A stretch of 5,854 nucleotides of DNA from a virus (IMGVR_UViG_2703719354_000007); one strand, 5' to 3'; positions 4,680 through 5,396 are shown, counted from the first letter of the stretch. Numbers and translations: made by a program. Notes: generated by a model not told the origin, from the sequence alone.

Positions 4680-5396
4680 TTATCCGGCGGCTGCGCTCAC
4701 TGTCACGGTGCATTCAACAGACGTCACACTCTGTGCTTTCTCTGCCGAATCGGTCACCACGCAGGTATATTTCCCCGCATCAGCGGACTGCGCACCTGGC
4801 TTACTGAAGGTGTCTGTCGTCTGCCCGTCAACCGGCTGACCATCCTTCTTCCAGGCGTATTTATACGGCGGCGTTCCCCCGTTGGCACTGACTGACATTG
4901 TCAGCAGCGCACCTGTATTCACGGTAAGTGTTTTATCCAGATTTTTCACAAACGCCAGCGGTACCACAAAGGACACCGGTTTGCCTTTCATACGCAGTGA
5001 AAACGTTGCTGCCACCACGCCGTTGGTACCGGATGACCAGGTGTGCTGACGCACTTCCGCCAGGAACTTAAAGCCCTTACCGGACGGAAACAGCACCTTA
5101 AACGCATACAACGCGTCATTGTCATAGGCATCACGCAGGGCGTTCTGGGCCTGATTCAGATAAAAATTACCCGACATGGAAATCTCAGACGACGCCCCCA
5201 GACCGTTGATGTTCTCCTGCTCTGTGGAGCAGAGCGTGGTCACATCAATATCCTGTTTCTGACCGGCGGTGAACTGGACTTCCTTGATGGTGCAGTCCAG
5301 GCGCAGATATTCCGCCTTATCCATAGTTTCAGCAGTCGCCGGGGCAGATGAAATCATCACCTGCGTCAGCTGTGAGCGTTCATACAAAGCAGACAT
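4680..5396 (-). CDS. V: Major tail (tube) protein, 238 aa, with C-terminal Ig-like domain
   Basis: ORF-track 238-aa ORF. A strong Shine-Dalgarno AGGAGG (plus 5401..5406) lies 4 nt upstream of the ATG at 5396..5394. Position is immediately upstream of the G/G-T chaperone pair. The C-terminal ~80 aa (about 4934..4695) carries an Ig-fold-like signature (PPYKYAWKKDG...GKYTCVVTD...VECTVTV). Confidence 0.85.
   Translation of the reverse strand: MSALYERSQLTQVMISSAPATAETMDKAEYLRLDCTIKEVQFTAGQKQDIDVTTLCSTEQENINGLGASSEISMSGNFYLNQAQNALRDAYDNDALYAFKVLFPSGKGFKFLAEVRQHTWSSGTNGVVAATFSLRMKGKPVSFVVPLAFVKNLDKTLTVNTGALLTMSVSANGGTPPYKYAWKKDGQPVDGQTTDTFSKPGAQSADAGKYTCVVTDSAEKAQSVTSVECTVTVSAAAG

Follow-up and report, generated by a model that had tools for sequence, protein, structure and literature searches.

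Does the major tail tube gene of this prophage encode, in a single reading frame, an immunoglobulin (Ig)-like domain that is separate from the part of the protein that forms the tube, and, if so, to which Ig family does the domain belong and what might it do on the virion? The question comes from a first-pass annotation of 5,854 nt of viral DNA (IMGVR_UViG_2703719354_000007; the whole stretch is referred to here as the window), which described an Ig-like C-terminal domain on a putative tube protein and suggested that it belongs to a different Ig subfamily from the C-terminal domain of lambda gpV. The window (5.85 kb) represents the tail module, on the minus strand, of an E. coli prophage of the lambdoid type (HK97-like, Stx-phage-type), with the features collected in Table 1.

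Table 1. Features of the window, listed in transcription order, with the parts of the tube protein given below its gene.
Feature	Position (nt)	Strand	Basis and remarks
HK97-gp10-family gene, 3' end	5804 onward	-	First in transcription order
Tail terminator / tail completion gene	5463-5807	-	Pfam Tail_completion_gp17 (1.1e-7); PHROG 347 'tail terminator'; RefSeq; directly upstream of the tube gene
Major tail tube gene, 238 aa + TAA stop	4680-5396	-	ORF; orthologue of HK97 gp12 and BP-4795 ORF64
Tube-forming core, residues 1-140	4977-5396	-	Ends in invariant K137-G-K-P140; includes low-confidence long loop 46-67
Linker, residues 141-149 (VSFVVPLAF)	4950-4976	-	Low column conservation and length variation; DNA homology to Ig-less allele stops after codon 140
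Ig-superfamily (I-set/Ig_3-type) domain, residues ~150-234	4695-4949	-	Pfam, AlphaFold2 model, Foldseek
C-terminal tail AAAG after the last strand	4683-4694	-	Only in the closest E. coli alleles; pLDDT drops in the last model block
Tail assembly chaperone G gene	4291-4665	-	Pfam Phage_TAC_1 (2.7e-61); RefSeq coordinates
Chaperone T gene	3986-4267	-	After G
Tape measure gene, 1080 aa	696-3938	-	After T
gpM-like minor tail gene	362-703	-	After the tape measure gene
gpL gene, start only in window		-	Last in transcription order

The window is matched in 2,437 of 5,426 complete E. coli genomes (~45%), with at least 80% of its length covered in 1,242 and the best match being 98.3% identical, and many Stx1a, Stx2a and Stx2c converting phages carry a tube gene that is 98-99.9% identical to that of the window. 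In the closest complete genome (L001, 2203-5653), an IS66-family element (tnpA, tnpB and an ISCro1 transposase) interrupts the tail-tip gene adjoining L, which encodes a gpK-like C40 family peptidase and lies downstream of the window's gpL, past the end of the window. Because this tail-tip gene is broken, that prophage copy is probably defective.

The gene at 4680-5396 (-) encodes the major tail tube protein, the identity given to it by the first-pass annotation. PHROG 158 ('major tail protein') matches the product at 1.7e-116, the RefSeq name is 'major tail subunit', and the gene follows the tail terminator gene and precedes the G/T chaperone genes and, beyond them, the tape measure gene. Columns of the core are invariant up to K139 and P140 in at least 90% of the sequences in our 32-sequence homologue alignment. 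Pfam matches on core residues 8-141 (Phage_TTP_11, Phage_tail_2 and Phage_TTP_12) are weak, with Phage_TTP_11 scoring 24.6 bits, below its cut-off of 28.4, and the tube-core assignment therefore rests on PHROG, synteny, orthology and fold. The fold was predicted with AlphaFold2 from the same 32-sequence alignment (mean pLDDT of 80.5; a single-sequence prediction reached 43.4 and was unusable). Values in the core are mostly 80-91, the exceptions being residues 41-70, which cover the loop at 46-67 (block means of 37-52), and residues 121-130 (60). With this model as the Foldseek query, the best whole-protein matches are lambda gpV (7t4f and 8iyk; probability 1.00), while the core matches the gpV N-domain entries 7t2e, 8k36, 8k35 and 9mfe (probability 1.00, target-normalised TM of 0.51-0.54), which places the predicted core in the lambda gpV-N/Hcp-like tube fold. 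In a search of the PDB by sequence, only the Ig domain was matched, and no solved tube protein or core of the HK97 gp12 type was found.

The tube ORF is uninterrupted from M1 to G238, with 13 and 18 stops in the other two forward frames. Because the protein is thus encoded by a single ORF without an internal stop, the Ig domain is fused in frame, as had been claimed, and an extension appended by frameshifting, of the SPP1 gp17.1* type, can be rejected for the window. Positions 4695-4934 (-) translate to KTLTVNTGALL...ECTVTVS, which corresponds to K155-S234, and the peptide that the first-pass annotation had quoted (L157-V233) lies inside this translation. That annotation extended the tube-forming core to about residue 150; a core separate from the Ig domain stands, but it ends at about residue 140, with the KGKP motif, and the following nine residues (141-149) form a linker. 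As G starts 14 nt past the tube stop, there is no room for a separate or frameshifted Ig exon between the two genes, and a terminator sought in this 14-nt gap was not found.

Several smaller elements lie near the tube gene. The longest G ORF starts at an ATG at 4713 (-) and overlaps the last 34 nt of the tube gene. RefSeq instead uses the ATG at 4665, with AAGGGGA ahead of it, as the G start, and the same ATG encodes residue 17 of the longest ORF, the first one aligned to Pfam Phage_TAC_1; because the two agree, the overlap (4665-4713) is probably an artefact of the mechanical ORF call. Between G and T, we observe a canonical -1 frameshift site, with the heptamer A AAA AAG at 4300-4294 (-) immediately before the G stop (TAG, 4293-4291). 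The -1 frame past the heptamer is stop-free (KKVARPEICFLMRLALRLG...AAQS*) through the T ORF, to 3986 (-). In the best-matching RefSeq genome, G and T are two independent CDSs and a fusion product is not annotated, whereas the HK97 record annotates the frameshift. Upstream, between the tail terminator gene and the tube gene, there is a terminator-like hairpin at 5419-5433 (-), CCCGC-CGCGT-GCGGG followed by TTTTTTATTA, just ahead of the AGGAGG ribosome-binding site of the tube gene. A 'putative terminator' is annotated at the equivalent position in HK97, and our hairpin scan returned 2 sites against 1.5 expected by chance, which is not significant by itself.

The Pfam search that had been suggested as a check assigns the C-terminal domain to the Ig superfamily. 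Judged by curated gathering cut-offs, four Ig-superfamily models pass, all within residues 149-227: Ig_3 (PF13927; E=3.9e-9, 37.3 bits against a cut-off of 30, residues 157-215), Ig_2 (PF13895; 1.3e-8, 35.4 bits against 27), I-set (PF07679; 5.5e-8, 33.2 bits against 23.7, envelope 149-227) and ig (1.2e-4, 22.8 bits against 21.8). The PHROG 'Hoc-like head decoration' is matched at 4e-27 with the 80-aa segment alone and also at 7e-37, and sequence matches in the PDB include T5 pb10 at E values of 3e-19 and 2e-17. The resemblance to Ig domains is far beyond chance. Big_2, the family of gpV-C and T5 pb6, gives no Pfam match in the window protein at E values up to 1, and BLASTP produces no alignment between the C-terminal domains of gpV and the window protein. 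Membership in Big_2 is ruled out by these HMM and BLASTP results, and the earlier view that the domain belongs to a different subfamily from gpV-C is borne out.

The positions that are conserved within the domain include the hallmark residues of an Ig fold. Both motifs singled out by the first-pass annotation are present, as Y178-x-Y180-x-W182-K-K-D-G and G208-x-Y210-T-C212-x-V214. The core Trp in strand C and the D-x-G-x-Y-x-C signature in strand F are both conserved. The conserved positions comprise G173-G174, P177-Y178, Y180, W182, D206, G208, Y210, C212, D216 and C229, with conservation among homologues of 96% for W182, 92% for D206, 100% for G208, 92% for Y210, 92% for C212 and 96% for C229. 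The canonical inter-sheet disulfide is absent, as strand B (L164-A171, LLTMSVSA) contains no Cys in the window protein or in any aligned homologue. This absence does not exclude I-set membership, because many I-set domains, such as those of titin, likewise lack the canonical disulfide. Two other cysteines, C212 (codon 4761-4763, strand F) and C229 (codon 4710-4712, strand G), are each kept in 92-96% of homologues and should face each other across the F-G hairpin, as deduced from the register set by 216/225, with which the pair 212 + 229 agrees. They could form a non-canonical cross-strand disulfide after release from the cell, or they could simply contribute to core packing. T5 pb10 retains only the strand-G cysteine.

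Structure prediction and superposition, which had also been proposed as a check, agree with the profile matches. In the AlphaFold2 model, residues 151-230 (block-mean pLDDT values of 91-95) fold into a beta-sandwich of their own, whose strands lie at 148-151, 156-160, 165-172, 179-184, 196-199, 208-215 and 223-234. The predicted fold is a two-sheet Greek-key beta-sandwich of seven or eight strands. When the Ig domain alone is used as a Foldseek query, it matches the Ig-C2 domain of MALT1 (3bfo; TM of 0.88, rmsd of 1.7 Å), I-set domains of titin, and capsid decoration proteins of phages Moo19 and N4. It also fits predicted viral Hoc or outer capsid proteins at rmsd values of 0.9-1.5 Å, including a Salmonella phage Hoc (TM of 0.93, rmsd of 1.0 Å), and superpositions on I-set/C2-type Ig domains span 0.9-1.7 Å overall. 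The nearest solved relatives of the module are capsid decoration proteins, namely T5 pb10 (5lxk, 8zvi), Sf14 gp20 (9c2d) and Bas63 Hex-Dec (9ncf). A tblastn search places the module, at 40-57% identity, in decoration, whisker and tail proteins of enterobacterial phages of the T5-like, Felix-O1-like and T4-like kinds.

How the two parts of the protein relate can be judged from natural alleles in which the Ig domain is missing. We find at least 12 clusters (at 90% identity) of homologues of 147-154 aa without an Ig domain, one of which has 767 members; these alleles were drawn from prophage and metagenome contigs and may come from phages that are not infectious. They are ~76-81% identical to the window protein in the core and end 7 residues past KGKP, with P0099, P0100 and P0110-P0119 representing the widespread 147-aa form. 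On two contigs (L002 and L003, 4001-4444 in each; contigs of 21-34 kb), the 147-aa tube gene sits within a complete HK97-like head-tail module, with the G chaperone gene 9 nt downstream. DNA homology between the window and an Ig-less allele ends exactly after codon 140. An Ig domain hidden behind a frameshift in these relatives can be dismissed, as the chaperone gene follows 9 nt past the stop and there is no Ig-coding sequence. In the Ig-less modules, T and the tape measure gene are also separated by an additional small Zn_ribbon_3 gene (111 aa), which occupies the site where HK97 has the gp15 'moron'.

Because natural Ig-less alleles occur in otherwise homologous tube genes, the Ig domain is, by allele comparison, a separable accessory module and not a part of the tube-forming core. 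The first-pass annotation had recognized that the segment might instead prove to belong to the core. It could, for example, be an inter-ring arm of the kind seen in SPP1 or 80-alpha, with only a superficial likeness to Ig. Such C-terminal arms making inter-ring contacts are indeed known in other siphophage tube proteins (PMC9022992), but an arm would not explain why four Ig-family Pfam models pass their cut-offs, why the model shows a discrete, high-confidence beta-sandwich that superposes closely on Ig domains, or why 147-aa homologues lack the whole segment, and we give this explanation almost no weight.

Divergence is also more rapid in the Ig module than in the core: pairs of sequences share a mean identity of 0.725 in the core and 0.505 in the Ig domain, with the Ig value being the lower one in 99% of 300 pairs, and some E. 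coli alleles are mosaic, such as P0004, in which the core is 89% and the Ig domain 61% identical. These observations bear on the main rival to an adhesive role, in which the domain would serve mainly to assemble the tail or to strengthen it mechanically, by contacts made laterally or between rings or by shielding the flexible tube, rather than to adhere to cells. The Ig-like domain of YSD1 does wrap around neighbouring subunits (PMC9022992), and the framework residues of the Ig fold are strongly conserved across the family. However, the Ig-less alleles sit in otherwise intact tail modules, the rapid divergence is unexpected for a fixed structural interface, and the same module is found on capsid decoration and whisker proteins that make no contact with a tube. 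Moreover, in both lambda and YSD1, the Ig domain is flexible and poorly ordered in reconstructions (PMC9022992). The Ig-less alleles, the fast divergence and the non-tube occurrence make a primarily structural role less likely, and we regard it as improbable, while still the most serious competitor.

A separable, fast-diverging module could also be a recent and selectively neutral passenger of domain shuffling, without function in the window's phage. Its presence on many unrelated structural proteins and the existence of Ig-less alleles are in keeping with this possibility, as is an allele in which the domain is destroyed. In this Klebsiella-type allele (P0117; L009, 1290-2018), one base has been lost from an A5 run relative to the in-frame P0060 (L010, 1001-1705), changing TGGAAAAAGGG to TGGAAAAGGG, so that the second half of the Ig domain is out of frame and the 242-aa product continues past the normal stop. 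A second cluster, P0094, has the same break point. Either the Ig module of P0117 has truly been inactivated or the deletion is an error in sequencing the homopolymer; programmed frameshifting within the Ig domain of these 242-aa products was considered and rejected, as P0117 and P0060 differ by one deleted base and the window lacks an A5 run there. Against neutrality, thousands of E. coli prophage copies carry an intact, in-frame domain, with 3,419 members in the cluster of the exact sequence and 1,897 in a 92%-identical cluster. The domain is likewise intact across homologues from Escherichia, Klebsiella, Pectobacterium, Dickeya, Erwinia and Citrobacter that have diverged to ~50% identity, and the fold-determining residues are kept at 90-100%. 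The retention of an intact domain and of its fold residues despite this divergence indicates purifying selection on the folded domain. Base composition, in turn, carries no mark of a recent foreign origin, as the Ig segment does not differ from the core in GC content (0.541 and 0.531, respectively) or in GC3. We consider a functionless passenger very unlikely.

Overall, the best explanation is a two-module tube protein with an in-frame domain of the I-set/Ig_3 type that would act as an outward-facing adhesin, a reading to which we assign a probability of roughly 0.85. The data directly support the family of the domain, its predicted fold, where it begins and ends, its fusion in frame, the lack of it in otherwise homologous tube genes and the faster rate at which it diverges. 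In the mechanism that we propose, residues 1-140 form the core, which is predicted to assemble into hexameric rings stacked around the tape measure protein, and in-frame translation would give every tube subunit one Ig domain after the nine-residue linker. [quoted passage not shown] The lambda tape measure protein has 853 aa and corresponds to 32 rings; scaling to the 1080-aa tape measure of the window gives an estimated ~40 hexameric rings and thus ~240 Ig copies along the tail. By the same analogies, these copies might constitute a multivalent, low-affinity adhesin for surface carbohydrates, whose weak contacts would keep the virion near the cell surface or mucus and thereby raise the adsorption rate. 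Adhesion is a literature hypothesis even for the best-studied examples, and a 2022 review of phage tail structures calls the function of tail Ig-like domains 'unclear' (PMC9022992).

A broader and more speculative reading, which we hold to be rather doubtful when taken as a whole, joins the presence or absence of the domain and its rapid divergence into an ecological switch, with glycan tethering and a shared adhesion cassette. I-set alleles, including those of Stx-converting phages, may tether virions via the ~240 weak tail sites to ligands that may be gut mucin glycans or particular O-antigen or capsule sugars, and Ig-less alleles may be suited to other niches. The 'adhesion cassette' itself may pass back and forth between the tail tubes of temperate phages and the proteins that decorate the capsids of lytic phages of the T5-like and Felix-O1-like kinds.

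As a discovery, the domain is of little importance, as I-set domains on tube proteins of the HK97/BP-4795 type were catalogued in 2006 and NCBI already names the protein accordingly. What our analysis adds are the natural Ig-less alleles, the faster divergence of the Ig module and the finding that its nearest solved relatives are capsid decoration proteins. The tube family may be a convenient system for asking what the very abundant tail-surface Ig domains bind, because Stx-converting and other prophages carry it in nearly half of the complete E. coli genomes that were searched. With natural alleles that have and lack the domain, a clean comparison of adsorption or mucus adherence is feasible, and such a comparison may be relevant to the spread of Stx phages in the gut.

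Among known systems, the closest are HK97 gp12 (NP_037706), to which the window protein is 68% identical over 234 residues with no gaps (E of 2e-122), and ORF64 of the Stx1 phage BP-4795 (Q6H9U0), with 89% identity over all 238 residues. Both have the same two-module architecture and length as the window protein, HK97 gp12 gives the same kind of Pfam Ig matches, and the gene order in both phages (terminator, tube, G/GT, tape measure, M, L) is that of the window. The differences are only allelic, most of them falling within the Ig domain and the four C-terminal residues (AAAG). A putative terminator is annotated after gp12 in HK97, whereas the window has only the short gap between the tube stop and the G start. 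BP-4795 ORF64 (L008, 11188-12033) has an annotated length of 281 aa, its start being placed 43 codons upstream, where it overlaps the tail terminator gene; because its homology to the window protein and HK97 gp12 begins at Met44, the annotated start is probably too far upstream. In Table 3 of the 2022 review, HK97 gp12, BP-4795 ORF64 and PY54 gp12 are listed as I-set-bearing tail tube proteins, a listing credited there to Fraser et al. (2006), in contrast to Big_2 in lambda and T5, Big_1 in Chi and YSD1, and FN3 in SPP1 (PMC9022992). The exact 238-aa sequence is named 'immunoglobulin domain-containing protein' by NCBI, and RefSeq phage records also use this name. The in-frame Ig domain on this tube protein is thus correctly described, ordinary and already known.

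Lambda gpV (6p3e, 7t4f, 8iyk) follows the same plan, with a tube core of ~150 aa and a single in-frame C-terminal Ig-like domain of ~80 aa, and the neighbouring lambda genes G/T, H, M and L are homologous to those of the window. The two cores, however, are only ~17% identical, and gpV matches Big_2 (PF02368; 1.5e-19, 70.1 bits) and no I-set-type family, whereas the window protein matches I-set, Ig_3 and Ig_2. SPP1 gp17.1* and other siphophage tube proteins extended by programmed frameshifting likewise carry an Ig-like decoration (FN3) at the C-terminus, but the Ig families differ, and there the domain is added by a +1 frameshift so that only a fraction of the subunits are decorated, whereas all subunits encoded by the window should carry the domain.

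The closest parallels to the Ig module itself are found on capsids. The C-terminal Ig domain of T5 pb10 shares the GG-x-x-PY-x-Y-x-W-x-K-DG and D-A-G-x-Y motifs with the window domain, and T5-like decoration proteins reach ~57% identity to the module by tblastn. In the paper describing pb10, its Ig domain is solvent-exposed, flexibly tethered and dispensable, and it is proposed to bind carbohydrates or mucus. Proteins of the Hoc type (T4 Hoc, Sf14 gp20 and Bas63 Hex-Dec) belong to the same Ig subfamily as the window domain, and their Ig repeats each align to window residues ~155-235 with E values of 1e-6 to 1e-10. Hoc-type proteins place one to four domains in tandem on capsid hexamers, whereas the window protein would place a single domain on the tube; repeat number varies among the Hoc-type relatives, which parallels the presence or absence of the domain in tube proteins. 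The spread of the Ig module over these proteins is the domain 'promiscuity' that has been described in the literature.
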